Positions 3,182 through 34,850 of a DNA stretch of 64,000 nucleotides are shown here, piece by piece. The stretch spans positions 32,001 through 96,000 of IMG/VR virus record IMGVR_UViG_3300043775_001610. One strand, written 5' to 3'. Below the pieces are notes generated by a model. That model saw only the letters and a list, made by a program, of their open reading frames with translations, was not told the DNA's origin and did not search any database. The position numbers and the translations under genes are program-made. Each line of letters starts with the position of its first letter. Positions within the stretch are counted from its first letter, which is position 1. The stretch comes from a virus.

Positions 3182-3193
3182 AAAGAGTTAATT

Positions 3194-3739
3194 ATGGCAA
3201 TGTACGTTTTTCAAGAAATTGCACCAAAGACATTTTATTTTACATATTGTCTTCAAGAGATTGGGAACTATATAAGCTTCCTTGAAGAAAGCGAAAAGAA
3301 TCCAAGTAATTTAATTAGTCAGTGGCAAGACACAGAGTATGGATATGAGAAGAAGGTATCTTCTGATTTTTCTAACGAGTCTGGTCCAGTAGACACTCGT
3401 AGCCTTTTTATTATTAATAACTTGAAGGCGACATTCCATCACTGTTTTAGTCAGTATAAGATATTTAACAATATAGAAGAAGAAGTTAATCTAAGCACCG
3501 ACTATTTTGTAAGAAAACATAATGAAGGACAAGTAAAAAATAATTGTGGAGCAAAGGGCAAGTATACTGCTAGACTATATATTAACGATTCTTTTTCTGG
3601 TGGAGAAATTTCAATACCTGGAAAGCCTAAGTTTAAGCCAGAGGCAGGCAGCATAATTATCTCTCCATCAGATGTACAGGTGACAGCAGAACCAGCAAAT
3701 GGTAATTCAAGATACATTGCAATAGGTCATTGGGTTTAA
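3194..3739 (+). CDS. Degenerate 2OG-Fe(II) oxygenase-fold protein
   Basis: YINDSFSGGE and KPEAGS retained; HxD and distal His absent. Confidence 0.65.
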   Translation: MAMYVFQEIAPKTFYFTYCLQEIGNYISFLEESEKNPSNLISQWQDTEYGYEKKVSSDFSNESGPVDTRSLFIINNLKATFHHCFSQYKIFNNIEEEVNLSTDYFVRKHNEGQVKNNCGAKGKYTARLYINDSFSGGEISIPGKPKFKPEAGSIIISPSDVQVTAEPANGNSRYIAIGHWV

Positions 3740-13182: not shown

Positions 13183-13255
13183 TAGAACAGAGGAAAGGGC
13201 CTAGCCAGCCAAATATATATATTAATTTCATATGAAATCAGGAGGAAATACAATT

Positions 13256-14038
13256 ATGGCATATCAAAATACAGGTGACGCTAAGAATATTCTTGTTGGC
13301 GCATCACCACTATTTTTGTCAGTAGAAGACTCAACAACATCAGGTTACAACACAAACATGGAAGCGGGACTAGCGAAAGCTTTCGTTGCAGATAAAAACC
13401 GTCTTGTACCAGCATTTGTAGAAGCAGAGTCTTATACTACAACACTAAACAAAGTTTTACCAGTTACAGCAGCTACACAACAGACAACACCAACAGAGGC
13501 AAACCCTCTAAAGGGTGCAGCATACCGTAACGTTGGTTACACAAATAACGGTCTTCAGATCAGTTACCAACCAACATACGATTCTGTAACAGTTGATCAG
13601 CTTCTAGATACAGCTAAGCTATTTAAATCTGCAATGCAGGTTCAAATTTCAACTGAAATGGCAGAAGGAACCCTAGAAAATATTCTTGCAGTATTTGGAC
13701 AGAAGTCAGATACACTAAAGCCAAAGAAGGGTGGAACTCCAGAAGCAGTCCTAACAGGACTAGCAGCAGAAGATCACCTTGGCCTAGAAGCAGGTGCACT
13801 TGGTTCAGCTCCAACAGAGCGTCAACTAATTGCAATTGGACAGGCTCCAACATCAGAAGCAGCAGAAACTGAGCGTGTATACTATGCACGTCGTGTTTTG
13901 TCTGTTGAGCAGTCACAGTTCTCTTTGGCTCGTACAGCAGCAACAACATTCCCAGTAACATTCCGTCTTCTACCAGACGGTAATTATGCTGGTTCAGAAT
14001 ACGGTAAGATTATTGACCGTGTACTAAGACTAAACTAA
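13256..14038 (+). CDS. Major tail (tube) protein
   Basis: NVGYTNNG, VDQLLD, FPVTFRLLP motifs; AGGAGG RBS before ATG 13256. Confidence 0.8.
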   Translation: MAYQNTGDAKNILVGASPLFLSVEDSTTSGYNTNMEAGLAKAFVADKNRLVPAFVEAESYTTTLNKVLPVTAATQQTTPTEANPLKGAAYRNVGYTNNGLQISYQPTYDSVTVDQLLDTAKLFKSAMQVQISTEMAEGTLENILAVFGQKSDTLKPKKGGTPEAVLTGLAAEDHLGLEAGALGSAPTERQLIAIGQAPTSEAAETERVYYARRVLSVEQSQFSLARTAATTFPVTFRLLPDGNYAGSEYGKIIDRVLRLN

Positions 14039-14478: not shown

Positions 14479-14813
14479 ATTTAGCCGCTTTAGAAGGCCA
14501 AGTTTTTCTTTTAGGTCACTGGAAGAATTACGAAGAGCTAGAAGAAAATTTATCGATGCCAGAATTGGTTCAAACCATAACAGCGATAAATGAAAAAGAG
14601 CATAACCAAAGAAGATTCGCAGCATCTCTAAAAGGAATACAATTAGATGATGATGTAGAAGAAAAAGAAAAAGGTTCTACCTTTGAGGATATCCAAAGAA
14701 GAGCTCTTGGAATTAAAGCATCAGCAGATGATGTTGTTGGTTTACAAGGTCCCTTCGCAGCGCAAGCTGGATTTGGAATTGGCGCAGGGTTAGGATACTC
14801 TAGGAGTAATTAG
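14442..14813 (+). CDS. Frameshifted C-terminal part of tail chaperone (gpGT-like)
   Basis: Open -1 frame PNSGSGTGWSELDLAALEG... continuous with ORF 14556..14813. Confidence 0.75.
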   Translation, partial: PNSGSGTGWSELDLAALEGQVFLLGHWKNYEELEENLSMPELVQTITAINEKEHNQRRFAASLKGIQLDDDVEEKEKGSTFEDIQRRALGIKASADDVVGLQGPFAAQAGFGIGAGLGYSRSN

Positions 14814-17800
14814 TGGCTGACGAACAAATCGTAACCAGTATAGTCGCCAAAGCCGACTTGTCTAGCCTTGTGTCTGAAGTACACAGGGCTAGCGCTAGTC
14901 TACAACAATTACAAAGAGAGCTTCTTTCTTCAAACAGAGCAATAGCTGCTTCAACAAAGTTAGCAAATAACTTATTTAGAGATACACTGACTGGTAGTGG
15001 ACAATACTCCAGCCACTTTGTAAACCTTAATTCTGATGTAGATAAGTTTGGTAAAAACTTAGACGCTGGTAGATTAAAACTTAAAAACTATTTTTCAACA
15101 TTTAGAGAGCATGCTACAACACAAAAGGGCATGATCAGGGAGCTTGCCAAAGAGCAGGTAATGCTTCAGAATGCAGTACTTCAACCATTGGGTAGAAATG
15201 CTCAAGGTTTAATGCAGTACAATGTTATGATTCCTAGAGGTTTAGATGCTGTAAGAAATAGCGCACAACTAGCTCGAATGGAAATGCAGATAATGAATCG
15301 TGCATTGTCTGAAGGAGCAGGATCTTTAATTAACTGGGGTAAGAATACTCAGTGGGCAGGTAGACAGCTAACAGTTGGATTAACCGTTCCACTTACAATG
15401 TTTGGAGCGGCAGCTGGTAAAGCATTTAGAGAAGCAGATGCTGAATTAGTAAGATTAACAAAGGTTTACGGAGGACTAGCATCAACATCTGCACAAGATC
15501 TCAAAGCAATTAGAGAAGAAGTTGTGCAAACAGCAAAGTCTTTATCCCAAACAATGGGAGCCTCATTTAAAGATACAATTGCATTGGGTGCTGATATTGC
15601 AGCGACTGGAAAGATGGGCAACGATCTTTTAGAGTCAATTTCAGAAACTACTAGACTTTCTATTTTGGGTGAAGTTGACAGACAAGATGCTATGAAAGCA
15701 ACTCTATCAATTCAAACAGCATTTAAACAGAATACAGAAGAGCTTACAGAATCAATTAACTTTTTAAACGCAGTTGAAAACCAGACATCAACTACACTTG
15801 CGGATTTAGTAGAAGCAATTCCAAAAGCAGGTCCAGTAATTCAGCAACTAGGCGGAGATGTCAAAGACTTAGCTCTTTATTTGACAGCAATGCGAGAAGG
15901 TGGAATTAATGCATCAGAAGGTGCTAACGCATTAAAGTCTGGACTTGCATCTCTTATAAACCCAACAAAACAAACTGTCGGTATGATGTCAGACTTTGGC
16001 ATAGATGTTATGGGTATGGTTGCAAAAAATACTGGAGACACAACAGGCTTATTAACAGACTTACAAAAAGCTTTAGACAGCCTTGACCCGTTAAGCAAAG
16101 CAAGGGCAATGGAGCAAATGTTTGGAAAGTTTCAGTTTGCAAGAATGAGCGCCTTGCTTAATAACCTAGGCAAAGAAGGTAGCCAGACACTTCAGGTTAT
16201 GGAATTGATGAAAGCAAGCACTTCAGATTTAGCAGGAATTGCTGAGCGAGAATTAGGAATGATAACGGAATCCGCTTCTGGAAAATATAGAAGAGCTATG
16301 GAATCCCTAAAAGCATCTCTGGCAGATATTGGAGAAGATTTCCTACCAGTTGCAACAAAGCTTGTAAATGCAGCAGCAAAGATATTAGACTTCTTTAGTA
16401 ATTTACCATCCCCAATTAAAAAAGCAGTTACTTTCTTAGCAGGATTTACCGCATTAGTTGGACCACTTATTATGTTAACTGGTGTTCTTGCTAACTTCTT
16501 TGGATACATAACTAAGGGTATTGTTCAACTAAGAGCATTCTTTATGAAAGCTAATGGATGGAAGATGCTTACTCCAGAAATTATTGCCGCTCAAAAAGCA
16601 GCAGAAATGGTGGAGAACGCATTTTATTCAGATGCAGCAGCAGCTCAAGTTCTTCACAATGCATTACAAAAACTTGTTTTAGATTATCAAAATTTGCAAG
16701 CAGCTTCGATGAAAAATGCTGTTCCTGTAAACCCAGGAGTAAGTACAGTTGGCGGTGCACCAGTAATGGTTGCTGGAAGAAGAGTTGTTGACCCTAATGA
16801 TCCTTATGTAGGAGATGTTAACACTAGAGCAATGTCTCACATTAACCCTAGAGATCCTAATAATCCTGCAACAATATTTGGTGGTGTTCCTGGCGCAGTT
16901 CCAGTTAACAGAGGAATATCAAGAACCCCTCAAGTATACATGCATGATAGACTTCCAAATATTGAAGGACTAACAAGTATAAAAGGAATATCGACAGGAA
17001 TTGTTCCAGGAGAAGCAGCTAAATTTCACGCATTGATGGCAACACTTGGTATGCAAACCAAGCAAGAGGTTGCGGAATTAAAGAAAACAATTGCTATGGG
17101 TGGAACAGTAAGCAGAGAGCTACTAGACACATTTGATGACATATTGCCAATAACTCAAAGATTTGCAGATAGTGCAGCAACACAAGCAGCAGTAATTGTG
17201 CAGCAAATGAGAAATGCAGAAATAACAGTTGAGCAGGCAAAGGCAAGAATCTTAGCACTCAATGCACAAATAGAGGCAGACATGGGTACAGCGGTAAGCA
17301 TGTATGCTGCAGGCCGAGGAAGAACGCTAGATTTAACAAGAGCTCCGATGATGGATCAACCAGTTGTTGATGCAAATGGTCAGTTTACACTAAGAGATCT
17401 TTATAAGAAAAAAGCAAATGCTTCTGTGATGGAAGAGTTTGGAAGACTTCGTGGAGTAAGAACATTCGGCGCACCATATAGTATTCAAACAACAAGAATG
17501 CCTAGATTTAATACTGGAGGAGACGTAGAGTCGTTTGGCCCAAATAAAACTATGGTGTCTGGTCCATCTTCAATTAACTATGACGATAGGTTGGGAGAGG
17601 TCCCTCTCGGTGGATATGTTTTAAATCAGCAGGCTTCCATGGATCCAGCAAATGCTGATTTGGTTGCTATGGCTCCATCTACTTATTTGAATAATGGTGG
17701 AAGCATTACCGCAGCTCTTACCCCACGGGAGGTTGTCTTTGGTCCACAAATTCAAAGAATGCCTGAGCTTTATGCAGCCGTAGATGCAGCAAATAGTGGA

Positions 17801-20800
17801 TATAATTTCGGCGGGCAGATTATGGCTGGTATTACTGGATATGGAAAGAAAACATCTAATACTCCAGGAAGCAAAATGGATGAAAGACTGTTTAAAAAAC
17901 AGTACAAGGAATATTTAAGATTTATTAATAACCCACGATATGAAGATGACATGAGAGTAAGAATGATCATGTTGGACGCAGCAGAACTATCTTATACAGC
18001 AAAGATGCCTATGGATCAAGCTATAAAGACAGCAACATCTAATTTTGATTCTGCTAAAATACAATCTGGTGGATCTGATGAGAAATTTGTAAAGATAAGA
18101 ATTAAACAGGTACAAGATTTAGAAAAAAAGCATAAAGAGCTAAAAGTTAAAAATGCTAGAACTGCCGACACAAGCAGTAGCAAGGCTCTTAACTATAATT
18201 TAAACAAGGTCAGAGATGCAATGCTGGCTGACAAAAGCTTTGCTGCCGTCCATGATTTAATAAAAGATGTTTCCCCAACAACATTTAAAAATCGTAAAGG
18301 AATGCCAATCATCCAAGGATTGCATGATAGAGCACACTTTAGGCGTCGAGGTACACTTGGTTATATGACCAGCGGATACATGGGTCTTGCTGCAGTTATG
18401 CCTTCAGGAATAAATAATATAATGAGCAGGCTTGAAACTCTAGGACTATCAAGAGATGTTTTAAATTTAAATGCAGCAGATGCAAGAGAAAATTTTGCAT
18501 TAGCTTTAAAGAAAACAGGTATGGATAAGTTTGCAACAGTAGACGATCTTTATGCAGCAGTTATGGACGACGGTAAGTTTAAGACCAAGGCGCAAATAGA
18601 GTCTGGTAATGTTGTAAGAGCAAATAGAAAGCAGAGAGATTCTTGGAGCATGTTCTTACGAGCTGCAGCAACAAGACAGAAATGGATTCCAGGAAGACCA
18701 CCTAGACTTGTACCAGCTGGATACAACCTTGGCGGAATGATTCCAGGAGGGGCTATATCTAGAAATAGATTAAACTACGGCAACATCGCTCCGCTGCTTA
18801 GGTTATTAACACCAAGTCAACAGCTAAAGGTTTTAGGTCATGCCCGTGCAATGTCTTTTACAGGACGTTCTCCATACCCAAATACATCATATAGCCACAT
18901 AATATCGCCAAGCACAGGTCGTAGTTTCCCTGTACCTGGAGTTGGTGGAGTTTATGATGATGATCAAAAGAACAGAGTGTTTTTTAAAGCGGTTCCAAAT
19001 GAAAAAAGTTTAGTTGCAGAAACTCATGGAACAGCGATAGGAAGAATACTAAAAGTAATTACTCCAGTTCAAACTAGAAAAACAATTCCTAACCCACTAG
19101 ATCCAACTGGAAAATCAAAGTTCCTTGGTGCAGAATCACCTTATGATGAAGGATTTATTAATCCTAATACATCTATACCTGGAAAATTTAGTCAAGATGA
19201 AGTTTTAGATCAGCTTATTACATCTCTTATTTTTGGAAATAAAGATTTATCAAGAGCAAATGTTCATGGAAGACGACTAGCCGATGTTGGAAATGGAGGA
19301 GTATTAGCTAAGGCATCTATGAATGATGACTATGCAAAAACAATGCCTTCTATGGAAGAGATGGCAATGATCAATTTGCTGCAAGTTCGTGGAGGGGCTA
19401 GAAAAGATTTTGCTCATGACACCGCTCCTATTATTGCACAAATGACTCCAAAGCAGTATGGGGATGCCATAAGAGAAAAAATGAAAGCGGCTTATCCAGA
19501 ACTAAAGAAATATATACTTGCTATTCCTAAAAAAGAAAGAAAGCCTTACTTAGCTATGCTTGAAAGGTTTGAAACTGGCATGGATGTCGATTGGGCCAAA
19601 TATCATTCTATGCATGCTAATCCTAAATTTAATGCTGGAGGACCAGTTGGTGGAGGTCCAGTTCAAAGAAACAGATATGCTTATGGACGCAAAAAAGATG
19701 GATCAAGAAGACTAGGTAACCCAGCTGCAAGAGCAGCGCAAGAAAGAGCAAGAGCAGAGAGATCTGCAGCTTATAACCCAAGCAGCGGATCTTCATATAC
19801 AGCGACTGGAAATCCTCAGATGCAGGTAGCACGTGTTCCGTTTGTTGGAGGAACTGGAGTTCGTGGTAATGCTTACACTGGAGTTCCTACTGAATCTATG
19901 GCCAGAACAGTTGGTGTGATGAGACTTGCACAATTCCCTCATATGAATATGCCAACAATGCCAATGAATATTCCAGGAATAGGTAACACGTCAGCAATAA
20001 CAGCAGCATTTGCATCAATGGGAAATTCAATTAAAAGAGATTCAATGCAATTAGCAAAAGCTATAAAATTTAATGCACAATATATCTCTATGTCAACTAA
20101 AGAAAGTGCAATGTCTATTGTTAATAGAACAAAGTCTGCAGCAAATACAGTAATGACTTATACAAAAGCTATATCAAGTCAAGTTCTGGCTTCATCAAAA
20201 GCACAAGTTTCAAGACTTAAATCAGCTGGTTCAAGGTTTTATAATTCAATTGTAGCTGAGCAAAATGCTTACGCAGCAACAAGATATCCAGTTGGACAAG
20301 CCCCACCACAAGGATTTTTTGGCCCAGGCTATGTTGGTAAATATAAAGATTTAGGTGAGGGGCTACAGTCTAGAAAAGTAGGAAGCCTAGGTTTTAGAAG
20401 AACAGAGTATCTAGTTAATGGCGTAAGCATGACTGCAAAGCAGGCAAAAGCAGAGGGAGTTAGAATACCTCAAAGAGCCAATGGAATGAGCGTGGGTGCT
20501 CAAATGGGAATTGGTATGGCTGGATCAATGGGTGGCATGGCATTGATGCAACAAGAAAAGGTAAAGGTTTTTGGAACAGAGATGTCTGGAATGACTGCTG
20601 GAATGGGATTAATGGCTGCTACATCAATAATTCCAATGCTCCCTTTGGCAAAAATGCTTGCTGGAATTAAAGCTGGTGCAGCTTCAGCTAAAGCTGCAAT
20701 ACAGGGATTCTCAATGACAATGAAAGGCCTAAGAGCAGGAATTGCTTTACTAGCCAGATTTGCAAAAGGCTTTGGCCCAATTGGAATAGCTATAACAATA

Positions 20801-23800
20801 GCAACAGCAGGATTTAAAATTTATAAGGCAATTCAAGATGACTGGCAAGATGCCAGAATGGGTCTTTCAATGACTGCAAAAGCTGCAGAACAGGCAGGAG
20901 TGAAATACTTTAACTTGCAAGAAACAATGCAAGGCTATCTAGATAAGCAAAAAGCTGTAGCAGTTGCAGCTAAAGCATCACAATTTAATTCAATAGGAAT
21001 GCCTGGACTTCCTAAATCTGTAGAAGATGTAAAAAAGGCTAAAGAAGAAGGAAAGGCCTTAAAAGAAGTTATTGAGTCTATTAATAGATCAACTAGTACA
21101 GAAGAAACAAAGAGACTTCTATCAACTCAAAAGGCTCAATATATTGCAGGCGGAATGAGTGTTGAAGAAGCAAACAGAAAGCTATATGGGGCATTGCTTA
21201 ATAGTAATAAGGCTATGCAGGCATATGACATTCTAGGAAACAGTGCATTTGGAAAAATTGTAGACAAAGCAACGGCTGCAGAGTATGCTGTTGGAAACTT
21301 GATAAACACATTAAACAAAGGCTCAGGAACAGCTGATTGGTATAAAGAGGTTGCTGTAGGATTTGAAGGATTGATAAATACTTTCCAGGCAGCAACATCA
21401 AGCTTAATTGGAACAAAAGATGCAATGGGAAATGTTATAGATGATTATAAGGCTTATGACATGGTCATGTCTAGTTCAGAAAAAATGTATCCAGGGTTTA
21501 CTGCCCCAATTGGTGAAGAGGCATATGATAACCTTAGCAAGACAAACAAGCTGTTGGCTGGAATTGTAACTAAATCAGATAGCGTAAAAAGTATATTAGC
21601 AAAATGGAGTTTATTTACATCTGGAGTTAGTTATGATTTAAGTAAGATTGGTCCAGAGTTGGCAATTCAGTTAGCTGGATTTTCTGAAGCAGTTGGATCA
21701 GGAATTACTCAATTAACTAAGGCAGGTGGAGACGCTACTACTTTTGGAAAAGTTGGGTCTGCTTTAGAAAAATTGAAAAAGCAAGTAAATGCTGTTAGCG
21801 CCGCTTCTCAAAGGGCTGCAGCTGCAGCTCAAAGAAGCGCACAAGAAGAATTAAAGCTGCTTGATAAAAAACTTAAAGCTATTGATGATGAAAAAAATAA
21901 AAAACTAGAATCTTTAAGAGCAACTCAAGAGGCATCAAATTACGCATTAGAGTTACAGAAACTTCAGATTGAGTATGCTGATGCTGTTTCTCGTGGAGAT
22001 ATGGCAGCAGCAAATCGTGCCCAATTAGAAATAGACCAGCTTACTTTAAACAGACAGTCAGAACTTGCTCAAAAAGCAATTGAAGATGCAGCAAATAGGG
22101 CAAAAGCTCCTATAGAAAAATCTAAAAATGCTATACAAGATAAAGCTGACAGAGATAATAACGCTAATCAAAATGCTACAGATAATGCAGCACAAGCGGC
22201 AGAAGTTTCTGAAAAGCTAGTTGGCTTCCAGCAATCATATAATGAGTTAATTGAGCGTGGAATAAAGGCAAAGCTTATGCCAGACCCAGAAAGAATAAGA
22301 GAAGAAAAGAAAGTGCAGGAAGGTCTCCTTGCACTAGCCAAAGAACTTCAGACAGCTGGAACTGGAAACACAGCACTTGCTAAAGCAGTTCGTGAAGGAT
22401 TCCAAAAATTAAAACTATTTGATAAAGATGGAAATCCTGTAAGCCTTACAACAAAAGCGCCAGCAACAACTGGATCTGGAATGCCAAAAATTGGTCCAGA
22501 TGGAAAAGTTGTAACTCCATCTCCAATAATAAACCCAGATCTTCTTAAGCAATTTAGTAAAGATATGTTGGCAGTATCTGATATTGCAGAAAAAATAACT
22601 GGTGGTAAAACTAACTTAGATAGACTTAGAGTAGATTTGCTTCAAGCTTTAGGAGTTAATCCAGACAAATTATCAAAGACTGGTGTTGCTGGAAAAACTA
22701 CTGGAACAGGTTTGCCAGGAGATCCTAAAAAATATTTTGATTCATCTGGCAGAGAGATATCAGAAAAAGAATATAAGAGTCTACCAGTAGGAGCACCTAA
22801 AGGCGCAAATGGTGTATCTGGAGAAACTTATATAGTCCCTATAAAAGGTCTAAGCAATAGAGAGTTTACAGGATATCCCGATGTTAGCTTAAAATTTGCT
22901 AAAGCAAATGGTGGCAAACTTACTTTCCAGGATACAAACGGATACATTTACTATTCAAATGGTAAAGTTACGAAGGATGGAAAAACAGTTGGCGCATGGC
23001 TTGCTGCTCTACCAGGTGGAAACGGAAGATTAAAGTCTTACCATGAAGGCGGAAAAGTATTTGGCGAAGGAACTGCAACATCAGATTCTATTCCAGCAAT
23101 GCTTTCGGATGGAGAATATGTATTTAGTGCAAAGGCTGTAGACGCTGCTGGCGGACCAGATGTTGTTGACAACTGGCACAAAGCACTTAGAAGAGCAGAT
23201 GGCGGACCAATTTATCCTTTAGGTAAAAAACCAAAGTCTGCATACAACTCTAAGAATCAACCTACTGGAAGTCCTTACGGAAGATACTGGGGAGAATTAG
23301 AAAGACTATATCAAAGCTCACCAATCGGTTTTGATAAAAATGGAAAGCCTATATTTAATAATGCTGGAAAAGATCCATGGGGCGGAGTAGAGATACCAGG
23401 ACTTCCATTTAGTGGCAAGGTAGGACAATTCTCAGATTACTGGCATCAGCTAGCAGAGCAACCAAGAAAGTATAGCGGTCCTGGAATGGGTCTTGACAAG
23501 GATCCAATGCGTTACGCAGGCTCTGGAGCTTCTATGGGAGGCATTGGAAACGGTGCTTACGGAGTTGGTCCACTTATGTTCCACGCAGGTGGGGCAGTCG
23601 GTCATAAGCATGATGTAAATCCAATTACAAAGGCATTTAGGTTCTTTAAGAATGCAATGAATAATGGAACAAATCCAGCATCATCAATGATTATGGATAT
23701 TATAAATCAGGCAGGGTACTTAGGGCAAACTGGCCTAAGCAGCCTGACAAAGGGCATAGTTCCTAAGCCTACTAAAGTCCAAGATAAGGATTTCCAAGAG

Positions 23801-25357
23801 TTTACAGGAATACCTTCAATATATAGATCTGTCACTAATAAAACAGATGAGGGCCCAGTTGGACAAGTTGATCCTACTGCTGGAAAGATTGTAGATTACG
23901 CTGGGGCATTAACATTTTTAACTCCGTGGCGTTCATCTAGTCGTATGGCTGCAAATGCCGCAGCTTCTGCAGCACTACCAGCAGCTCCACCATTATCACC
24001 AATCGAAATGTTCAGAGGACAGTTTGATAGTTTTGATGTAAGTGGGTTACCAAAAGGCACTATGAGCACAGGACCAAGAGTAAAACCTTGGGAATATGAA
24101 ACATACAAAAAAATACTTGCAAGACATTATTTAGCGAAAAAACCAGACCCAAGAACATTGACTCAACACGAAGTCGCAGTTCTTGCACACCAGAAGGTTC
24201 CTGGCTTTGAAGGGTTAAGGGTTCATGACGAATACACTGCAGAGTCAATTGCCGACAGCTTAAAGTTAAGAGCTACCTTTAATTACACTTCTCCATTGAC
24301 GAAATCGGTATCCACAGTAGAAGAGCTTTTAAGCAAGTCTTTATTTCATGGTGGAAACCTACCAACGGTAGATGGAAAAATTGATTTAAAAAATAGAACT
24401 GGATTAAACAGCTGGTACGGCGGTCAGATGTTTGCCGCAGAAGATTACAAGCAGGCCTTAGCATACCTTATGAGATCTCCAGAGAATACAGTCTATTCTG
24501 TTACATCTGCATTAAAGAAAGAAGATGTAATAGACCTTAGACATAATGCAAACACGCTAGCTTCACAGCAGCCTTATGTATTTGCAAAATTACTAAGAGA
24601 CATAGAGTCTGGTAAAATTGCACTTCAAGACCATCAGTCAAAGGACTATGTTATACAAATGTTGATAGGTCAAGAGGGTGGAAGATATCCACGTGCTGCA
24701 GGCTCTGGAGCACTTAGAGATAGAATTTTCCAAAGATACTTCCAAGACATTTCTCCATGGTTAGCAGAAAACGGAATAAAGGCAATTATTCATAGAAATG
24801 GAACAAGAGTTGCTATCCCAGAAATAGGAAAATCCGTAGCAGATAACCCAACTAAGGTGCAAGATTTTAGCGAGCTAGGTACCGATGCAATAGCCTACAC
24901 CACGGTAGAAAATTCAATTGCACAAATACAAAAGCATACTATAACTGGCCAAATGGTTAAGGATCTTATTGAAAAAATGGGCAAGGGACAACTACCCTCC
25001 TCACTTGAGTCACAAATACTTGCAATGCTTAGAAATCCTACATTAGTACCTCATAAAGCATTAGGTGGATTAATTAAATCAACAGGAATGAGACTACCTA
25101 AATTTGAGGCGGGAATCAATATGGTTCCACAAGACATGCTAGCGTTAATTCATAAAAATGAAGCTGTGATCCCAGCCAATATGAATCCATTTAATCCAAA
25201 TGCTAAATCTTCAGCAGTAGCATCAGGATCAGTATATAATATTAATGTAGAGCTAAATGGAACTACAGTAACAGCAAAAGACGTTGCAATGGAAATACAT
25301 AGAGAAATGAGAATTAAAGAAATGGCATCTGGAGTAAATAGAAAGGTTGGTGGGTGA
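14813..25357 (+). CDS. Tape measure protein (3514 aa) with inserted enzyme-like modules
   Basis: Position; TP901-type N-terminal core; hydrophobic segments; TSDSIPAMLSDGEYV motif. Confidence 0.9.
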   Translation: MADEQIVTSIVAKADLSSLVSEVHRASASLQQLQRELLSSNRAIAASTKLANNLFRDTLTGSGQYSSHFVNLNSDVDKFGKNLDAGRLKLKNYFSTFREHATTQKGMIRELAKEQVMLQNAVLQPLGRNAQGLMQYNVMIPRGLDAVRNSAQLARMEMQIMNRALSEGAGSLINWGKNTQWAGRQLTVGLTVPLTMFGAAAGKAFREADAELVRLTKVYGGLASTSAQDLKAIREEVVQTAKSLSQTMGASFKDTIALGADIAATGKMGNDLLESISETTRLSILGEVDRQDAMKATLSIQTAFKQNTEELTESINFLNAVENQTSTTLADLVEAIPKAGPVIQQLGGDVKDLALYLTAMREGGINASEGANALKSGLASLINPTKQTVGMMSDFGIDVMGMVAKNTGDTTGLLTDLQKALDSLDPLSKARAMEQMFGKFQFARMSALLNNLGKEGSQTLQVMELMKASTSDLAGIAERELGMITESASGKYRRAMESLKASLADIGEDFLPVATKLVNAAAKILDFFSNLPSPIKKAVTFLAGFTALVGPLIMLTGVLANFFGYITKGIVQLRAFFMKANGWKMLTPEIIAAQKAAEMVENAFYSDAAAAQVLHNALQKLVLDYQNLQAASMKNAVPVNPGVSTVGGAPVMVAGRRVVDPNDPYVGDVNTRAMSHINPRDPNNPATIFGGVPGAVPVNRGISRTPQVYMHDRLPNIEGLTSIKGISTGIVPGEAAKFHALMATLGMQTKQEVAELKKTIAMGGTVSRELLDTFDDILPITQRFADSAATQAAVIVQQMRNAEITVEQAKARILALNAQIEADMGTAVSMYAAGRGRTLDLTRAPMMDQPVVDANGQFTLRDLYKKKANASVMEEFGRLRGVRTFGAPYSIQTTRMPRFNTGGDVESFGPNKTMVSGPSSINYDDRLGEVPLGGYVLNQQASMDPANADLVAMAPSTYLNNGGSITAALTPREVVFGPQIQRMPELYAAVDAANSGYNFGGQIMAGITGYGKKTSNTPGSKMDERLFKKQYKEYLRFINNPRYEDDMRVRMIMLDAAELSYTAKMPMDQAIKTATSNFDSAKIQSGGSDEKFVKIRIKQVQDLEKKHKELKVKNARTADTSSSKALNYNLNKVRDAMLADKSFAAVHDLIKDVSPTTFKNRKGMPIIQGLHDRAHFRRRGTLGYMTSGYMGLAAVMPSGINNIMSRLETLGLSRDVLNLNAADARENFALALKKTGMDKFATVDDLYAAVMDDGKFKTKAQIESGNVVRANRKQRDSWSMFLRAAATRQKWIPGRPPRLVPAGYNLGGMIPGGAISRNRLNYGNIAPLLRLLTPSQQLKVLGHARAMSFTGRSPYPNTSYSHIISPSTGRSFPVPGVGGVYDDDQKNRVFFKAVPNEKSLVAETHGTAIGRILKVITPVQTRKTIPNPLDPTGKSKFLGAESPYDEGFINPNTSIPGKFSQDEVLDQLITSLIFGNKDLSRANVHGRRLADVGNGGVLAKASMNDDYAKTMPSMEEMAMINLLQVRGGARKDFAHDTAPIIAQMTPKQYGDAIREKMKAAYPELKKYILAIPKKERKPYLAMLERFETGMDVDWAKYHSMHANPKFNAGGPVGGGPVQRNRYAYGRKKDGSRRLGNPAARAAQERARAERSAAYNPSSGSSYTATGNPQMQVARVPFVGGTGVRGNAYTGVPTESMARTVGVMRLAQFPHMNMPTMPMNIPGIGNTSAITAAFASMGNSIKRDSMQLAKAIKFNAQYISMSTKESAMSIVNRTKSAANTVMTYTKAISSQVLASSKAQVSRLKSAGSRFYNSIVAEQNAYAATRYPVGQAPPQGFFGPGYVGKYKDLGEGLQSRKVGSLGFRRTEYLVNGVSMTAKQAKAEGVRIPQRANGMSVGAQMGIGMAGSMGGMALMQQEKVKVFGTEMSGMTAGMGLMAATSIIPMLPLAKMLAGIKAGAASAKAAIQGFSMTMKGLRAGIALLARFAKGFGPIGIAITIATAGFKIYKAIQDDWQDARMGLSMTAKAAEQAGVKYFNLQETMQGYLDKQKAVAVAAKASQFNSIGMPGLPKSVEDVKKAKEEGKALKEVIESINRSTSTEETKRLLSTQKAQYIAGGMSVEEANRKLYGALLNSNKAMQAYDILGNSAFGKIVDKATAAEYAVGNLINTLNKGSGTADWYKEVAVGFEGLINTFQAATSSLIGTKDAMGNVIDDYKAYDMVMSSSEKMYPGFTAPIGEEAYDNLSKTNKLLAGIVTKSDSVKSILAKWSLFTSGVSYDLSKIGPELAIQLAGFSEAVGSGITQLTKAGGDATTFGKVGSALEKLKKQVNAVSAASQRAAAAAQRSAQEELKLLDKKLKAIDDEKNKKLESLRATQEASNYALELQKLQIEYADAVSRGDMAAANRAQLEIDQLTLNRQSELAQKAIEDAANRAKAPIEKSKNAIQDKADRDNNANQNATDNAAQAAEVSEKLVGFQQSYNELIERGIKAKLMPDPERIREEKKVQEGLLALAKELQTAGTGNTALAKAVREGFQKLKLFDKDGNPVSLTTKAPATTGSGMPKIGPDGKVVTPSPIINPDLLKQFSKDMLAVSDIAEKITGGKTNLDRLRVDLLQALGVNPDKLSKTGVAGKTTGTGLPGDPKKYFDSSGREISEKEYKSLPVGAPKGANGVSGETYIVPIKGLSNREFTGYPDVSLKFAKANGGKLTFQDTNGYIYYSNGKVTKDGKTVGAWLAALPGGNGRLKSYHEGGKVFGEGTATSDSIPAMLSDGEYVFSAKAVDAAGGPDVVDNWHKALRRADGGPIYPLGKKPKSAYNSKNQPTGSPYGRYWGELERLYQSSPIGFDKNGKPIFNNAGKDPWGGVEIPGLPFSGKVGQFSDYWHQLAEQPRKYSGPGMGLDKDPMRYAGSGASMGGIGNGAYGVGPLMFHAGGAVGHKHDVNPITKAFRFFKNAMNNGTNPASSMIMDIINQAGYLGQTGLSSLTKGIVPKPTKVQDKDFQEFTGIPSIYRSVTNKTDEGPVGQVDPTAGKIVDYAGALTFLTPWRSSSRMAANAAASAALPAAPPLSPIEMFRGQFDSFDVSGLPKGTMSTGPRVKPWEYETYKKILARHYLAKKPDPRTLTQHEVAVLAHQKVPGFEGLRVHDEYTAESIADSLKLRATFNYTSPLTKSVSTVEELLSKSLFHGGNLPTVDGKIDLKNRTGLNSWYGGQMFAAEDYKQALAYLMRSPENTVYSVTSALKKEDVIDLRHNANTLASQQPYVFAKLLRDIESGKIALQDHQSKDYVIQMLIGQEGGRYPRAAGSGALRDRIFQRYFQDISPWLAENGIKAIIHRNGTRVAIPEIGKSVADNPTKVQDFSELGTDAIAYTTVENSIAQIQKHTITGQMVKDLIEKMGKGQLPSSLESQILAMLRNPTLVPHKALGGLIKSTGMRLPKFEAGINMVPQDMLALIHKNEAVIPANMNPFNPNAKSSAVASGSVYNINVELNGTTVTAKDVAMEIHREMRIKEMASGVNRKVGG

Positions 25358-29578: not shown

Positions 29579-30435
29579 TAACAAAATTTGGAAAAAGATT
29601 TTTAACTAGCTATATTGCAGGAACCTCCTCTCTGGATTCAAAAGAGATGGCTTTGGGTATTGCAACAAATTCTGAGTATCCAATATCTGATACAAACTCA
29701 AGATTAGGGTTTGAATTCTATAGGGTTCCAATTAGGCAAGGCGGAATTAATATTGATACAACAACATCTCCAACAACTTATACCGTAATTTTTTCTGCTA
29801 CTCTTCCTACAAACATATCTGGAAAAATTAATGAGATTGGTATATATTCTGGACAATCATATGCTAGACATCTTTATAGCAGCAAGTTTATTTCAAATTT
29901 CGAATTGCCTTATGAATGGACTCCAGAGCCAGCGCTAGATCAAGTTAACAGTAGAGTTTTAGATAGCTCTTTAACGTTTACTTCAAACTCTACATCCCCA
30001 CAAGAGTATACTTATCCACTGTCAAATTTAGATATTTCTGGGTATAACCCACTTGATACAATGTGCCTTTGCTATAAAGCAAATGATGCAAACCTGTCTT
30101 CTATAAAAGTTAGACTCTACAGTTCTGATTCAGACTATATACAGTTTACTTTTTCTGGTCATTCGGTAGGAGATAACATTAAGTCTGTATTTATGTCTAG
30201 CGGAGTAACAACAGGAACATTTAATCCAGAGAGCGTTAGTAAGGTTGGAGTAATAATTACACCAACATCAGCTCAAACATCTGTATCTATGGATGGCCTT
30301 AGAATAAATGACGAGGACACCTTTGACCCAGAATACGGATTAATTGCCAGATCGATACTTGACTCAACAATGATCAAGGTCCTTGGAAGAGAATCTAAGA
30401 TAGAGTTTAAACTAGATCTGTCGTTTGGAGTCTAG
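29575..30435 (+). CDS. Baseplate/minor tail protein
   Basis: MITKFGKRFL...MALG...EFYR...INEIG pattern. Confidence 0.6.
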   Translation: MITKFGKRFLTSYIAGTSSLDSKEMALGIATNSEYPISDTNSRLGFEFYRVPIRQGGINIDTTTSPTTYTVIFSATLPTNISGKINEIGIYSGQSYARHLYSSKFISNFELPYEWTPEPALDQVNSRVLDSSLTFTSNSTSPQEYTYPLSNLDISGYNPLDTMCLCYKANDANLSSIKVRLYSSDSDYIQFTFSGHSVGDNIKSVFMSSGVTTGTFNPESVSKVGVIITPTSAQTSVSMDGLRINDEDTFDPEYGLIARSILDSTMIKVLGRESKIEFKLDLSFGV

Positions 30436-33400
30436 TGTGACTGAACAGTATAAAGATTTAGGAAGAATTACCCAGAGTAAAGACGGAGACTACTGGGAGG
30501 TAGAGATATCCGATTTAGATTTTGATACTCAATACTCTCTAGAAGCAGCCTGGGTATTTTCAGATAAGACCAAAGGCACAAGCCCTTTTTCAGATCCATA
30601 TAATTTTACAACACCTGAACAAGAAGGCCTTCTGGCCCCACAGTTTAGAGAACAAGACTTAGATGCAATAAGCTCAATACTATACATCAACTGGAGCGGA
30701 TTAAACTCTAGCCTTGTTCCGTATGATTCTTCAATATTTAAACAAGTTAATGTCTGGATTAAAGGCGGAGATTTTGGAGAACAGTATGTACGCTATGCAT
30801 CATTTTTTACAAAGGCGGGAACGATACAGATCAATGCAACAAAAGTATCTACATACTGCGTAAAACTTCAGGCAGAAACTAAAGATGGAAAATTTTCACC
30901 ATTTTCAAATGAATTTTGTGTGACCCTATTAGAGCAGCCAGATCCAGTTTATGAAGTTAGACATGAATGGGTTAAAAGAGATTTGGTTTTATTTTGGAAA
31001 TTCCCTGTAAATTTGCCTAAAAACAGCATGGCTGACTCGTTTGCAGTTCAACTAATTGCGGATGGCAAAGACATTACTTTGTATACAAGTGTTGATAAAA
31101 CTAAAATTCCTCCATTAGAGCATAAAATTGTATTTACCGAAGGACGACTGGCAGCTATATTTGGTCAAGTAACTGCATTTCAAACAGACTATGACGCATT
31201 TATTTTTGTAAGAGATAAAAATCTGCAAACAAGCACAGTAGTTGGATACAATGTGACTGCATATGTAGATCCACTAACACCACCAGTTATTTCAGCAATA
31301 AAAGGTCCCATGTCCTATAGTGTTTCATTTACAAATAACTCTGAGTTTGATAGAATATATATAGAAGATAGCACAGACAACGGAGTTACTTGGGTAGATC
31401 AGGGCTCGTCTACTTCAAATCCAGTTTATGTTCAACCTACAAACTCTCTTACACGTCAAGTAAGAGCAAGATTTTCTAGAGTGCGTGGAGGGCTTACTGG
31501 GTATAGCAATATAGTTTCTGTCACTCCAGATAAAATTGATCCAACAGATGAAACTCCGCCAGCAGTACCCACAGTCAACTTCGTATCTTCAACATCATCA
31601 ACTATAACTGTTAATATTGTTAACTCAGATACAAGTACTAAAGCTCATAGATTAAGATTTAGAGAGAGTGGCGCTACCCTTTACCAAACAGACATTGTTC
31701 CGTATACAGCAGCAACTACCCCATATACTTTTGGCGGGCTAAAGCCAAATACAACCTACAATATATCAGCAGCATCATATGATAGCTTAAATAATTTGAG
31801 CGCATTTTCTTCAGATATAAATAGCGTAACGCAATCATTAGCGGCAAATCCTCCAAGTTCAGTTTCTTTAACTGCTGCAGCATCTGGAGTTCTAGGCTCA
31901 TGGACAGCGCCATCAGTTCAGCCAGCAAGAGTTGACAGGTATAAGATAGAGCTGTGGCAAGATTTATCAACTGATGTTTTAATTACTACACAATTTGCCT
32001 TTAGCACAAATATATCATTTGGCGGTCTATCTGCAGGATCATATTACATTAAAGTTCAAACTCAAGATATGTATGGAACACTTAGTGATCCTGTTCAAAG
32101 CAGTAGCGTATCGGTATCTGGAGTTGAACCTACCGATGGTCAGGTACCTTCTAGCTCTCCTGCAGCCACAGTAAATCCTTTATACGGAGCACTTGAAGTT
32201 AAGTGGACAGCAATAACAAATTCAGATCCTGTAACATATGAAATTCATTTATCCACAACAAATAATTTTACTCCTTCAGTATCAACATTAGCTCTACAGG
32301 TTACTGGAACGTTTGCAATAATAAAAACTCTTCCAGGAACATCAACTTCCTTAACATATGGAACAACTTACTATGTAAAAATATTAGCTAAAGATGCAGA
32401 TGGTCCTGCAACATCTTATGGAACCCAGGGCTCAGGAATACCATCTGCAATTGATAATGGAGATATTGCTGCAAATGCAATTCGTGCAAACGTAATACGA
32501 GCTGGAGAAATAACAGCAGACCAAGTAAACTCCTCAGCCTTACTTGCAAATAAAGTTATTACTGTAGGTGCCAGGTCTGCAGTGGTTACAGGAGCCTCTG
32601 TATCTGCAGGAAATATAACATATACAACTTCTGATACTCATGGATTTGGAAACGGGACACTGGTATCAGTAACTGGTATGTCCAACACAGCATTTAATAT
32701 TACAAGTTTTGCGATACAATCCACAACAACTAATACATTTGTTGTTGTAGTTGGTGGATCTGGAGCTAGTGGGTCTTTATCAAATCAAACAGGAGTTGCA
32801 ACTTCTACTGTAAATACTGCTATAAAAATAGATGCTTCGGGAACAGGTCTTTCTGCTAGCCCATTTAAGTTATATAGCGGAGCTGGTACATATGCAGATG
32901 CTGGAACAAATCCAGGAACTCCCTTTTATCTAGACACTACTGGAAAATTTTCTTTAAGAGATAGACTGTATTTTGACGGTGCGGGCTTAACGGTTAATGG
33001 AGTGATAAAAGCATCATCTGGTAATTTTGATGGGGCTATGACCGTAAACAATGGAACCATGAAGATAGGAACTTCAGCTGGCGGAGCAACGGGAACCGAT
33101 GGCTTATATATAAATGCAAACAACTATTGGTACAGCTCTGGAAATATTAAAATAGGAAGTGCTTCTAATCATTTAATTTGGGAGGGTGCAACTCTAAAAG
33201 TAACAGGAGAAATAAATGCTGCTTCAGGAAGCATAACTGGCAACTTAACAATGACTGGCGGCGGATCAGTAATTGCCAGAACTGTAGCTAACTCTAATAA
33301 CAGAGTGAATCTAAATTATCTAGGACTTTATGCTTACGATGCAAGTGGAGCAGAAACAACACAAATAATTTCAAATGCTGAAGCTAACGCTCCTACTTTT

Positions 33401-34849
33401 AGAACAGATAGAGCTAGAATAGGAAATTGGACTGTAGCGCCAAATACAATATCTTCAAGTAATATAACTCTAACATCTGGATCAAATGCTTCTTCTACAT
33501 CTATTATTGCTACAAATGGTGGCTCTTATGTTGGAATAAGGCCAAGGGCTACTGATGGCTCAGATATTGTTTTGTGGGCTGGTACAACCAATACTCCAGC
33601 AATAAATAGTTCTACAGTAGGCGGACAAGCTGGTTTCCAGGTAAATGCAGATGGTCAACTGTATGCTACTGGAGCAATAATATCTGGAAAGATTACAGTG
33701 CAAGAGGGTTCATCACTTGGCGGACTATTAAATGATACATCTAAAATTTATTATTCATCAAGTATTCCCACAGTTCCTGCTACAGGACATAAGAGTGGAG
33801 ATGCTTGGGTTGATACTGGAAACAACTATATTCTAAAGATATGGAATACTACACTTAATCCACCAGCATGGACGATAGCACAAGATTCAGAATCAGCAAG
33901 AACAATAGCTAATTTAAAGAATAGAACATTTTATGCTACACAATTAACAACCCCAACTAGACCTAATCTATCAGGACAATCATTTGTCTCTGGAGATTTG
34001 TGGATAAACTCTTCTAATAAAAATAAGCCTTATAGGTATGACGGCTCATCCTGGGTAATAGTCGCAGACGCAGATGCTACAGACGCAATAGAGAAAGCTA
34101 ATTCAGCATTAGCAAAAGTTACAAACTATGAAGATAGATTTGGTACTGGTGTAAATGCTGGTCTGCTTGAAGATTTAAAAGTAAATACTCAAGGAAGAGG
34201 AATATATTCTTCATTTGTAGAATCAGGCAATACTTATGCTAAAAGTTCATATGATAGTACAGTAACTGGATTTTATATTGGATGGGACTCTGGAGCTGGA
34301 GTATTGTACCCATCATTAAATATAGGAAACAATAATGCTTTTGTTAAATGGACCAGTAGAGGAACAGGAACTTTAGAAGTAAAAGGAACAATAAGAGCAA
34401 CAGCGGGAGCGTTTGAAGGAAATGTAACAGCTGGTGCAGGAGCAATAACAATTGGAGCTGGTGGAATTTCTACTGCAAGTGGTAAATTTAGTATTGATAC
34501 AGCAGGCAATGCATATTTTGGTGGGTCGCTTACATCTGGAACTACATTCAGTCTTGGAAATGGAACATTGTCATATGGTGGTGGAACTAGTGATGTTGTA
34601 TTAAATGGAGCAACATTAAGTTTTACAGGAGCATCTAATATAATATTTGGAGATGATAATAACTATGGTGGAGATGCGACAGTTGTACTTAATCAAAATG
34701 CACAATTAACAAAAGGAAGAGCCTTTCATTATGGAGGAACGACTATACCTACCGTAGCTAACCAGTCAAGACAAATTTATAATAGCAAATTGTCACGGTA
34801 CGATACGGTACCCTTTGTTGCGGGAGATATATGGATGACGGTAGACTAA
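30425..34849 (+). CDS. Tail fibre/host-specificity protein with FN3 repeats
   Basis: FN3 motifs (GLKPNTTYNI, GLSAGSYYIKV, LTYGTTYYVKI); GDAW/GDLW/GDIW repeats; start uncertain. Confidence 0.75.
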   Translation: MESSVTEQYKDLGRITQSKDGDYWEVEISDLDFDTQYSLEAAWVFSDKTKGTSPFSDPYNFTTPEQEGLLAPQFREQDLDAISSILYINWSGLNSSLVPYDSSIFKQVNVWIKGGDFGEQYVRYASFFTKAGTIQINATKVSTYCVKLQAETKDGKFSPFSNEFCVTLLEQPDPVYEVRHEWVKRDLVLFWKFPVNLPKNSMADSFAVQLIADGKDITLYTSVDKTKIPPLEHKIVFTEGRLAAIFGQVTAFQTDYDAFIFVRDKNLQTSTVVGYNVTAYVDPLTPPVISAIKGPMSYSVSFTNNSEFDRIYIEDSTDNGVTWVDQGSSTSNPVYVQPTNSLTRQVRARFSRVRGGLTGYSNIVSVTPDKIDPTDETPPAVPTVNFVSSTSSTITVNIVNSDTSTKAHRLRFRESGATLYQTDIVPYTAATTPYTFGGLKPNTTYNISAASYDSLNNLSAFSSDINSVTQSLAANPPSSVSLTAAASGVLGSWTAPSVQPARVDRYKIELWQDLSTDVLITTQFAFSTNISFGGLSAGSYYIKVQTQDMYGTLSDPVQSSSVSVSGVEPTDGQVPSSSPAATVNPLYGALEVKWTAITNSDPVTYEIHLSTTNNFTPSVSTLALQVTGTFAIIKTLPGTSTSLTYGTTYYVKILAKDADGPATSYGTQGSGIPSAIDNGDIAANAIRANVIRAGEITADQVNSSALLANKVITVGARSAVVTGASVSAGNITYTTSDTHGFGNGTLVSVTGMSNTAFNITSFAIQSTTTNTFVVVVGGSGASGSLSNQTGVATSTVNTAIKIDASGTGLSASPFKLYSGAGTYADAGTNPGTPFYLDTTGKFSLRDRLYFDGAGLTVNGVIKASSGNFDGAMTVNNGTMKIGTSAGGATGTDGLYINANNYWYSSGNIKIGSASNHLIWEGATLKVTGEINAASGSITGNLTMTGGGSVIARTVANSNNRVNLNYLGLYAYDASGAETTQIISNAEANAPTFRTDRARIGNWTVAPNTISSSNITLTSGSNASSTSIIATNGGSYVGIRPRATDGSDIVLWAGTTNTPAINSSTVGGQAGFQVNADGQLYATGAIISGKITVQEGSSLGGLLNDTSKIYYSSSIPTVPATGHKSGDAWVDTGNNYILKIWNTTLNPPAWTIAQDSESARTIANLKNRTFYATQLTTPTRPNLSGQSFVSGDLWINSSNKNKPYRYDGSSWVIVADADATDAIEKANSALAKVTNYEDRFGTGVNAGLLEDLKVNTQGRGIYSSFVESGNTYAKSSYDSTVTGFYIGWDSGAGVLYPSLNIGNNNAFVKWTSRGTGTLEVKGTIRATAGAFEGNVTAGAGAITIGAGGISTASGKFSIDTAGNAYFGGSLTSGTTFSLGNGTLSYGGGTSDVVLNGATLSFTGASNIIFGDDNNYGGDATVVLNQNAQLTKGRAFHYGGTTIPTVANQSRQIYNSKLSRYDTVPFVAGDIWMTVD

Positions 34850-34850
34850 T

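Follow-up and report, generated by a model that had tools for sequence, protein, structure and literature searches.

A giant phage tape measure protein with a predicted kinase-like module and apparent cassette exchange at short GG joints

Tape measure proteins (TMPs) are usually seen as rulers or channel formers that carry at most a wall hydrolase. Mycobacteriophage TM4 reportedly has a TMP with an embedded cell-wall hydrolase motif, as Piuri and Hatfull are said to have described in 2006. In other siphophages (T5, JBD30, Douge) the tail is filled by a TMP trimer, which has its C-terminus in the tip or baseplate hub, is ejected C-terminus first and forms or lines the DNA channel. The single experimental case of a TMP that brings a working cytoplasmic enzyme is gp96 of Thermus phage P23-45, a TMP of 5,002 amino acids (aa) fused to a virion RNA polymerase that transcribes the incoming genome (PMC10770324). 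Here we analyse a giant TMP of 3514 aa from an uncultured siphophage, encoded in a 64,000-nucleotide stretch (the window) at positions 32,001 to 96,000 of the IMG/VR virus record IMGVR_UViG_3300043775_001610. An initial reading made from the letters of the DNA (the sequence-only reading) had taken this protein for a polyprotein divided by GG motifs and loaded with injected enzymes. From our analysis we consider it fairly likely that the TMP is a conserved ruler scaffold with modules set between short conserved GG joints and exchanged at these joints, and one of the modules is probably a kinase.

The P23-45 protein resembles this one in being a giant TMP with a non-structural enzyme, which in P23-45 was shown to work in the host. 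It has one N-terminal RNA polymerase, and no cassette array or exchange at joints was described for it, whereas the TMP of the window has a kinase-like domain in mid-protein and a variable C-terminal cassette zone. In T5 pb2, lambda gpH and JBD30 gp46 the C-terminal tail docks in the tip and a hook lies upstream, as it does here; the authors of the JBD30 study modelled residues 1022-1066 as a 'hook' and proposed that it anchors the TMP in the baseplate once the C-terminal domain has left, as a similar hook does in T5 (PMC11445458). By analogy, the conserved C-terminal tail of our protein would also dock in the tail tip. Unlike it, with its several joints and up to about 870 aa of cassettes (~1960 aa in relatives), these three TMPs possess a single hook and no more than one small muralytic domain, and in T5 pb2 the enzyme domain is separated by processing. 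Actinophage TMPs, such as gp21 of Rhodococcus phage Shagrat, carry the same [FY]AxGG and hook motifs on both sides of NlpC/P60 and SLT domains in their last third, but these are wall hydrolases only, and a kinase-like module or dozens of cassette families were not described for them.

Two further groups are comparable in their modular build. Polyvalent proteins combine several unrelated domains, including kinases and ADP-ribosyltransferases (ARTs), and are thought to enter the host with the DNA (Iyer et al. 2017, PMC5512222). They share with this TMP the multi-domain polypeptide and the cassette-like variability, and the neighbours of its kinase module among the predicted viral structures of BFVD are such proteins. 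In phages they are described as being injected through the tail, and the prototypes Alt and N4 virion polymerase are carried inside the head (PMC5512222); the carrier described here is a tail protein, outside the head-associated (MuF/portal) context, and the processing metallopeptidase (MPTase) usual for polyvalent proteins has no counterpart in it, as neither an HExxH motif nor a peptidase domain was found. It has one supported catalytic domain, the kinase, to which relatives add CHAP, and the word 'tape' is absent from the wording of Iyer et al. 2017 (PMC5512222). Sle1-type effectors of actinobacterial contractile injection systems are TMP-like membrane-active scaffolds with an exchangeable C-terminal domain, ejected from a tail-like tube (PMC13277306, PMC11126660), but they are short cargo of a bacterial nanomachine with one functional domain and not the ruler of an infectious phage.

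Wall-hydrolase TMPs, processed TMPs, a TMP-polymerase fusion, head-borne polyvalent kinases and ARTs, and TMP-like effectors with swappable ends are already published; a kinase inside a phage TMP, or a joint-based cassette system, we did not find described in the literature. The family presented below would extend the P23-45 case to more than 180 sequence clusters with a conserved and apparently active kinase and with a recombination-prone zone that holds about 40 module families, most of them unknown. Should this cargo act in the host, it would offer a large and so far unexploited supply of phage effectors that act early, and the protein itself a natural modular scaffold for protein delivery.

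The TMP family, its GG joints and module exchange

The open reading frame (ORF) has the limits, strand and length that the sequence-only reading had assigned to it (Table 1), and it encodes a genuine TP901-family TMP. PhageMin_Tail (PF10145) matches aa 239-438 with 91.1 bits against a gathering cut-off of 33.2; the gene is placed among tail genes; hydrophobic stretches (aa 537-567 and aa 1934-1952) and a conserved C-terminal tail are present; and 13 TMP PHROGs match the ORF (best E 2e-121) over roughly aa 15-1056, the stronger of these matches ending by about aa 860. A search with aa 640-3514 gave 183 giant TMPs, counted as sequence clusters, of 2,024-4,576 aa on contigs of up to ~117 kb, among them a relative of 3512 aa that is 94% identical to the TMP of the window (P0002). 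Alignment of 100 relatives revealed about 90% identity for aa 1-1000 and 40-70% for aa 1000-2600; aa ~2600-3468 are hypervariable, and the final 47 residues are conserved again, so that aa 3468-3514 are kept in nearly all relatives. The variable zone is 152-221 aa long in 53 of 111 relatives and 529-1,960 aa long in 58 of them, and it measures 868 aa in this protein. The step in conservation at the YNFGG joint is sharp (window 14813-17812 versus 17813-22600); it possibly reflects a constraint from contacts with chaperone, tube or DNA end, or recent sweeps of the N-terminal part.

All ten motifs on which the sequence-only reading was founded are present where it placed them, namely FNTGG 17507 (aa 899), LNNGG 17687, YNFGG 17801, YNLGG 18722, FNAGG 19628, YHEGG 23039, RADGG 23192, FHAGG 23579, KALGG 25055 and FEAG 25103, and the sizes that it claimed for the segments between them (303, 297, 124 and 487 aa) are equally correct. 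The strict motif [FY][NHA]xGG was observed 6 times against 0.34 expected and the looser GG pattern 10 times against 1.4; none of 5000 shuffles reached either count. The enrichment is real; the pattern was defined post hoc, from the same data, but conservation gives independent support: the five core joints retain GG in 99-100% of the 100 full-length relatives aligned, with the pairs at aa 902, 933, 962, 1000, 1307, 1312 and 1609 each present in 99-100 of them. An aromatic residue occupies position -3 of these pairs, and Asn position -2.

The joints fall into three classes: N-type, [FY]NxGG; His-type, [FY]H[KD]GG-PVGH[KR]H; and hook-type, GG..G.GT.TSDSIPA.LS.GE.V. N-type joints at aa 997, 1304 and 1606 have a longer unit in common, [FY]NxGG..[GA]G....YG, and the two that flank the kinase form a repeat of ~20 aa. 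The His-type unit, [FY]-H-[KD]-G-G-P-V-G-H-[KR]-H, is the commonest joint in the variable zones (65 distinct contexts), and FHAGG-AVGHKH of this TMP belongs to it. We found no known motif that matches this His-rich unit; with three chains per tail it could form a metal-binding clasp. In relatives P0003-P0093 the His-type joint is often preceded by a run such as GGLLGGGGG.

The hook-type joint, GG-x-V-x-G-P-G-T-G-T-S-D-S-I-P-A-M-L-S-x-G-E, was met in 29 contexts; in this TMP it is represented by YHEGG, and the first two of the FNTGG, LNNGG and YNFGG elements also look hook-type. When aa 900-3514 were compared with isolated phages by tblastn, they matched in the hook element only. Among solved structures (PDB) the element was found in mycobacteriophage Douge gp16, in two copies, and in JBD30 gp46, in a single copy (aa 1019-1063) that matches the YHEGG element, and it is present in at least 13 TMP PHROG families. 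Together with the Shagrat protein, these occurrences suggest that GG-delimited cargo is a general feature of TMPs which is greatly expanded here.

That the GG motifs may be junctions for module swapping, as had been proposed, was borne out by the comparison of related TMPs, in which modules are added, dropped, replaced and reordered at the joints. Ends of similarity to the query (q) pile up at q2790/2800 (RADGG, 2794-2798) and at q2929/2933 (FHAGG, 2923-2927), and similarity restarts at q3416/3428 (KALGG, 3415-3419) and at q3468. In an all-versus-all comparison of 58 long variable zones, a strict GG motif is no more than 5 aa away for 17% of the internal breakpoints and for 3.8% of random positions (4.5x), and no more than 10 aa away for 27% and 7%, respectively, which is supportive and not decisive, since the pairs are non-independent and a conserved motif itself tends to end alignments nearby. 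Splitting the zones at the motifs and clustering the pieces of at least 60 aa gave about 43 cassette clusters in 39 different arrangements among 101 proteins. Single cassette families change 8-12 times on the core tree (aa 1000-2590), close to the values for shuffled labels, on a FastTree tree in which branch support was not considered and whose core may itself be recombinant.

The same mosaic is seen in DNA. The match to relative L004 has as its exact limits the GG of YHEGG and FHAGG (aa 2746-2923). In L001, a genome 96% identical in DNA, a diverged patch of ~70 aa with small indels starts from the RADGG joint, and the sequence reads RLHKGG-PVGHRH where the window reads RRADGG (L001:13131-13700 versus window 23036-23600); it looks like a recent local replacement.

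Distant relatives extend the pattern to the middle of the protein. One without the kinase (P0120) has q1310-1576 exchanged for about 130 aa, another (P0117) has 187 extra residues exactly after q1613, and in a third (P0119) module A (q1023-1305) is replaced; in five other distant TMPs the replaced stretch begins at about q905-1000 (q631 in P0130) and continues to about q1950-2020. In these distant proteins similarity ends at q905, 945, 990, 1023, 1305, 1310 and 1613/1614, mostly at a GG motif or a few residues from one. For the modules of aa 1001-1605 the proposed swapping was thus confirmed among distant relatives only; within the close family these modules are constant.

The kinase-like module and other candidate cargo

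Three segments had been said to carry enzyme signatures. One of them, the HipA-like kinase signature, was upheld by fold and by catalytic residues, and the module at aa ~1337-1605 is probably an active kinase-like domain, as predicted from its model and motifs. The motifs comprise a G-loop (G1376/G1379, 99% in the 100 relatives), K1392 (99%), E1403 (99%), D1478-x4-N1483 (100% for both residues) and D1491-V-G (D1491 99%), and the identity around them is about 50%; these residues were assigned by their order and predicted secondary structure and not by residue-level superposition. In the AlphaFold model of aa 1000-1610, built from 16 sequences, the overall predicted local distance difference test (pLDDT) score is 52.9. 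An exhaustive structural search with VIA placed CotH first (5jda, Z 10.6), together with CtkA (3akj, 9.6), PI4KII-alpha (4pla, 9.4), MavQ (7m7a, 9.3) and HipA (4pu3, 9.1), and about 40 of the 50 top rows are kinases.

With these five proteins the module has in common the bilobal kinase-like fold, aligned over about 190-230 residues, and the order Lys, Glu, D-x4-N, D-x-G. It differs from them in its low identity (9-12%) and in that no Pfam model of their families matches it, and its catalytic loop, K-D-L-S-R-x-N, resembles the HipA loop less than it does the eukaryotic-type R-D-L-K-x-x-N. The BFVD search of predicted viral structures found PI3K/PI4K-like domains of large phage proteins (E 4e-5 to 8e-4) annotated as ART or portal fusions, and the named language-model neighbours are PI3_PI4_kinase, LepB_N and HipA_2. 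No PHROG matched at E <= 1, and a 16-sequence profile of aa 1000-1610 gave no PDB sequence at E <= 10; because curated kinase models (HipA_C, PI3_PI4_kinase, CotH, Pkinase) do not match we file the module as kinase-like by fold and not as a member of a named family. A search for a stand-alone kinase among proteins of similar length returned only five short matches, four of them on contigs of 0.7-5.5 kb, which look like fragments.

The other two signatures, of a His-Me nuclease and of an ART, found no support in hidden Markov models, profiles or folds. In module A the proposed nuclease histidine of D-R-A-H (His 1175) is kept in 62 of 100 relatives (Ser in 17, a gap in 15), and the proposed metal-binding Asn 1201 in all 100. 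No match to module A was found in Pfam, PDB profiles or PHROGs, and the fold search is uninformative at the hairpin-helix region of the would-be nuclease since pLDDT is <50 there. The description of aa 1001-1303 as unlike helical TMP sequence did not hold either: the segment is modelled as mostly helical, at low confidence.

The last cassette (aa 2928-3414) is composed of a leader of about 145 aa, shared with other cassettes, and a rare domain of ~270 aa, C2. Querying 1.84 billion representatives with aa 2927-3419 gave only 13 clusters, about six of them over C2, and the C2 clusters that could be judged are all TMPs or TMP fragments. Pfam at E <= 10 returned no ART model for aa 2927-3419, for the C2 part by itself (aa 3146-3419) or for any of six homologues, and a search of the whole phage record for PF18760 (ART-PolyVal) at E <= 1 gave none. 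C2 (aa 3146-3419) has no match in Foldseek PDB, VIA wide or PDB sequence profiles; its model is weak (pLDDT 59, from 7 sequences), with a best VIA Z of 3.4 and a best Foldseek E of 0.36. The language-model neighbourhood score to ART-PolyVal clusters is 0.80-0.87, and the residues invariant in 5-7 homologues (H3179-G-G, F-A, A..Y3218 and Q-E3288-G-G) resemble a PARP-like order, though not placed on a reliable structure. We consider the ART function of C2 conceivable but doubtful. By eye, a 999-aa C-terminal TMP fragment from a metagenome (P0126) seemingly has two modules of the C2 type with the pattern H-G ... F-F-A-T ... Y, the second copy lying upstream of the aligned one.

Splitting the protein at the motifs, a check proposed in the sequence-only reading, was productive in part: the eight joint-delimited pieces gave nothing meaningful in Pfam at E <= 10, and in the two modelled regions (aa 1000-1610 and aa 3146-3419) the fold search was positive for the kinase only. 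The pieces had no PHROG match at E <= 1, and the C-terminal 104 aa no match among PDB sequences. Recognisable cassettes in relatives are confined to the cell-wall domains CHAP and LysM, found in the variable zones of 6 and 2, respectively, of the 12 relatives scanned.

Possible mechanism and rival readings

If this TMP behaves as in other siphophages, its trimer would leave the tail before the DNA, C-terminus first, so the C-terminal cassettes would be the first to meet the cell wall or periplasm and may act there first. The Gly/Met-rich hydrophobic region (around aa 1885-1960) might contribute to membrane passage or to the channel; glycine zippers in TMPs have been linked to membrane translocation (PMC10240207). 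The kinase, since it needs ATP, would have its place of action on the cytoplasmic side; arriving ready-made together with the genome, it would target a host protein or lipid. Because this module has the look of an intact atypical kinase, the tail probably brings at least one finished enzyme into the host. The joints may serve mainly as flexible conserved linkers that enable exchange of cassettes by recombination, and those of the hook type may be anchoring points in the tail tip in addition.

Several points weigh against this reading. Metagenomes are the sole source for this phage, and the model of the kinase is moderately good (pLDDT 60-94 within the domain). The top Foldseek PDB rows are all kinases, at weak E-values (about 4e-3), and no Pfam family matches the module at E <= 10. 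Besides the limits of the breakpoint statistic and of the core tree given above, the constancy of the middle modules in the close family means that exchange takes place mostly in the C-terminal zone, and there the sole identifiable cargo is cell-wall directed. A folded domain of ~30 kDa, three times over, would also have to be stored in a lumen of ~4 nm and to cross the membrane.

The cell-wall nature of the recognisable cassettes makes host-takeover or anti-defence cargo a matter of inference, and it favours another interpretation, by which the whole set is a toolkit for the envelope: the cassettes, C2 included, would open wall and membrane for the DNA, and the kinase-like domain would act on a membrane lipid or wall precursor instead of re-programming the host. 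The joints around the Shagrat hydrolases agree with this, as do the lipid kinases among the nearest folds (PI4KII-alpha, MavQ, LepB_N-like). However, the periplasm is without the ATP that a kinase needs, Pfam recognises no wall hydrolase in this TMP, and the PI3K/PI4K-like phage domains found by structure search belong to large proteins that carry ART-fusion or portal-fusion annotations. We hold the restriction of all cargo to the envelope to be rather unlikely.

A true polyprotein, with the GG joints as proteolytic sites that free the kinase and other enzymes in the host at or after ejection, would account for joints being found on both sides of each module, including the repeat around the kinase. 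Cleavage is known for T5 pb2, where it follows R1127 and separates the hydrophobic stretch from the muralytic domain, and lambda gpH is processed too (PMC10038345); the JBD30 authors propose cleavage directly after the hook element (PMC11445458), and an S78 prohead protease gene lies inside the window. Yet a GG motif is found at none of the known TMP cleavage sites, the mapped T5 cut being after Arg, and apart from this upstream protease the search found no HExxH motif in the TMP and no JAB, MPTase, gpK-like or other peptidase in the TMP or its tail-gene neighbours. In the P23-45 study the polymerase is hypothesised to remain associated with the TMP pore, and processing of the TMP is not reported (PMC10770324). 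Moreover, with sequences that vary between the classes, the joints look more like linkers than like sites for one protease, and we find cleavage at the joints improbable.

Equally improbable, in our judgement, is the boldest form of the delivery idea, in which the lumen is an effector-delivery device, the joints are cut or unfold, the kinase and the cassettes of the ~40 families are freed before any phage gene is expressed, and the kinase blocks defence or re-programmes the host.

Least convincing is a purely structural role, with the modules as lumen filler or length parts, the joints as hooks or ratchets by which ejection proceeds in stages, and the kinase-like domain as a scaffold or as acting late in the producing cell: the proposed anchoring by the hook element (PMC11445458), the scaling of tail length with the whole TMP in Douge and JBD30 (about 0.155-0.16 nm per residue) and the helical model of module A speak for it, but the near-invariance of the kinase catalytic residues, the free loss of cassettes in half of the family, odd for structural necessities, and the enzymatic nature of the CHAP cassettes make it quite unlikely. 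As for tail length, either it varies by hundreds of nanometres between closely related phages or the cassettes make no contribution to it. The conserved scaffold with modules exchanged at the joints remains the reading that we prefer.

Features of the protein and genomic setting

Table 1. Parts of the TMP gene in the 64,000-nucleotide window, with residue ranges of the product and the observations on which each part is based
Feature	Window position	Strand	Observations
TMP gene	14813..25357	+	one uninterrupted ORF, 3514 aa/codons
Ultra-conserved N-terminal TMP unit (aa 1-898)	14813..17506	+	PhageMin_Tail at aa 239-438, hydrophobic aa 537-567; ~90% identity, 100 relatives
Three GG elements FNTGG, LNNGG, YNFGG (aa 899-1001)	17507..17815	+	GG kept in 99-100%
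Module A (aa 1002-1303)	17816..18721	+	mostly helical model, pLDDT mostly <50
N-type joint YNLGG with PGG..RNR..YG unit (aa 1304-1323)	18722..18781	+	left repeat copy beside kinase; breakpoints q1305, q1310
Predicted protein-kinase-like domain (aa ~1337-1605)	18821..19627	+	fold matches and conserved catalytic residues
N-type joint FNAGG with repeat unit (aa 1606-1625)	19628..19687	+	right repeat copy beside kinase
Gly/Met-rich hydrophobic region, glycine-zipper pattern (aa ~1885-1960)	20465..20692	+	composition
Conserved region rich in helix-favouring residues (aa ~2000-2600)	20810..22612	+	composition; in 119-120/120 relatives
Hook-type GG element YHEGG, then G.GT.TSDSIPAMLSDGEYV (aa 2743-2793)	23039..23191	+	matches isolated-phage TMPs
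Cassette D, RADGG to FHAGG (aa 2794-2927)	23192..23593	+	in about one third of relatives
Sub-module C1 (aa 2928-3071)	23594..24025	+	opens with His-type continuation AVGHKH; leader common to several cassettes
Sub-module C2 (aa 3146-3419), rare cassette, claimed ART	24248..25069	+	no fold match
Conserved C-terminal tail (aa 3420-3514)	25070..25354	+	includes degenerate hook KFEAG..VP..L..NEAVIP

Judged from its composition, the region at aa ~2000-2600 is possibly the helical ruler. Not a single cysteine occurs among the 3,514 residues of the TMP, which may fit travel in an unfolded state through tail and periplasm.

The virus record has 110,252 bp and is estimated to be 92% complete. Megablast of the TMP gene against 50,697 phage records gave no match; the nearest isolated phages are Streptomyces phages of ~130 kb, with 33% identity over aa 55-670. 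The gene starts with GTG, which overlaps the stop of an upstream chaperone-like ORF. Upstream are genes for portal, S78 prohead protease and major capsid protein, a weak tail-tube match at 13232-14038 that stays below threshold (PF25681, E 0.004, 17.3 bits against a cut-off of 27), and two small ORFs, which match PHROGs without known function and are taken as chaperones by position. A 198-aa protein and then a 1,104-aa minor tail protein follow downstream.

Two very large ORFs lie further on, at window 30425-38186, one of 1,474 aa with fn3 domains and one of 1,111 aa; neither has a PHROG match, and presumably both belong to an undescribed type of tail fibre or baseplate protein. All 45 ORFs of at least 120 aa in the window (1-64000) are on the + strand, and the cumulative guanine-cytosine skew climbs almost steadily over its 64 kb.

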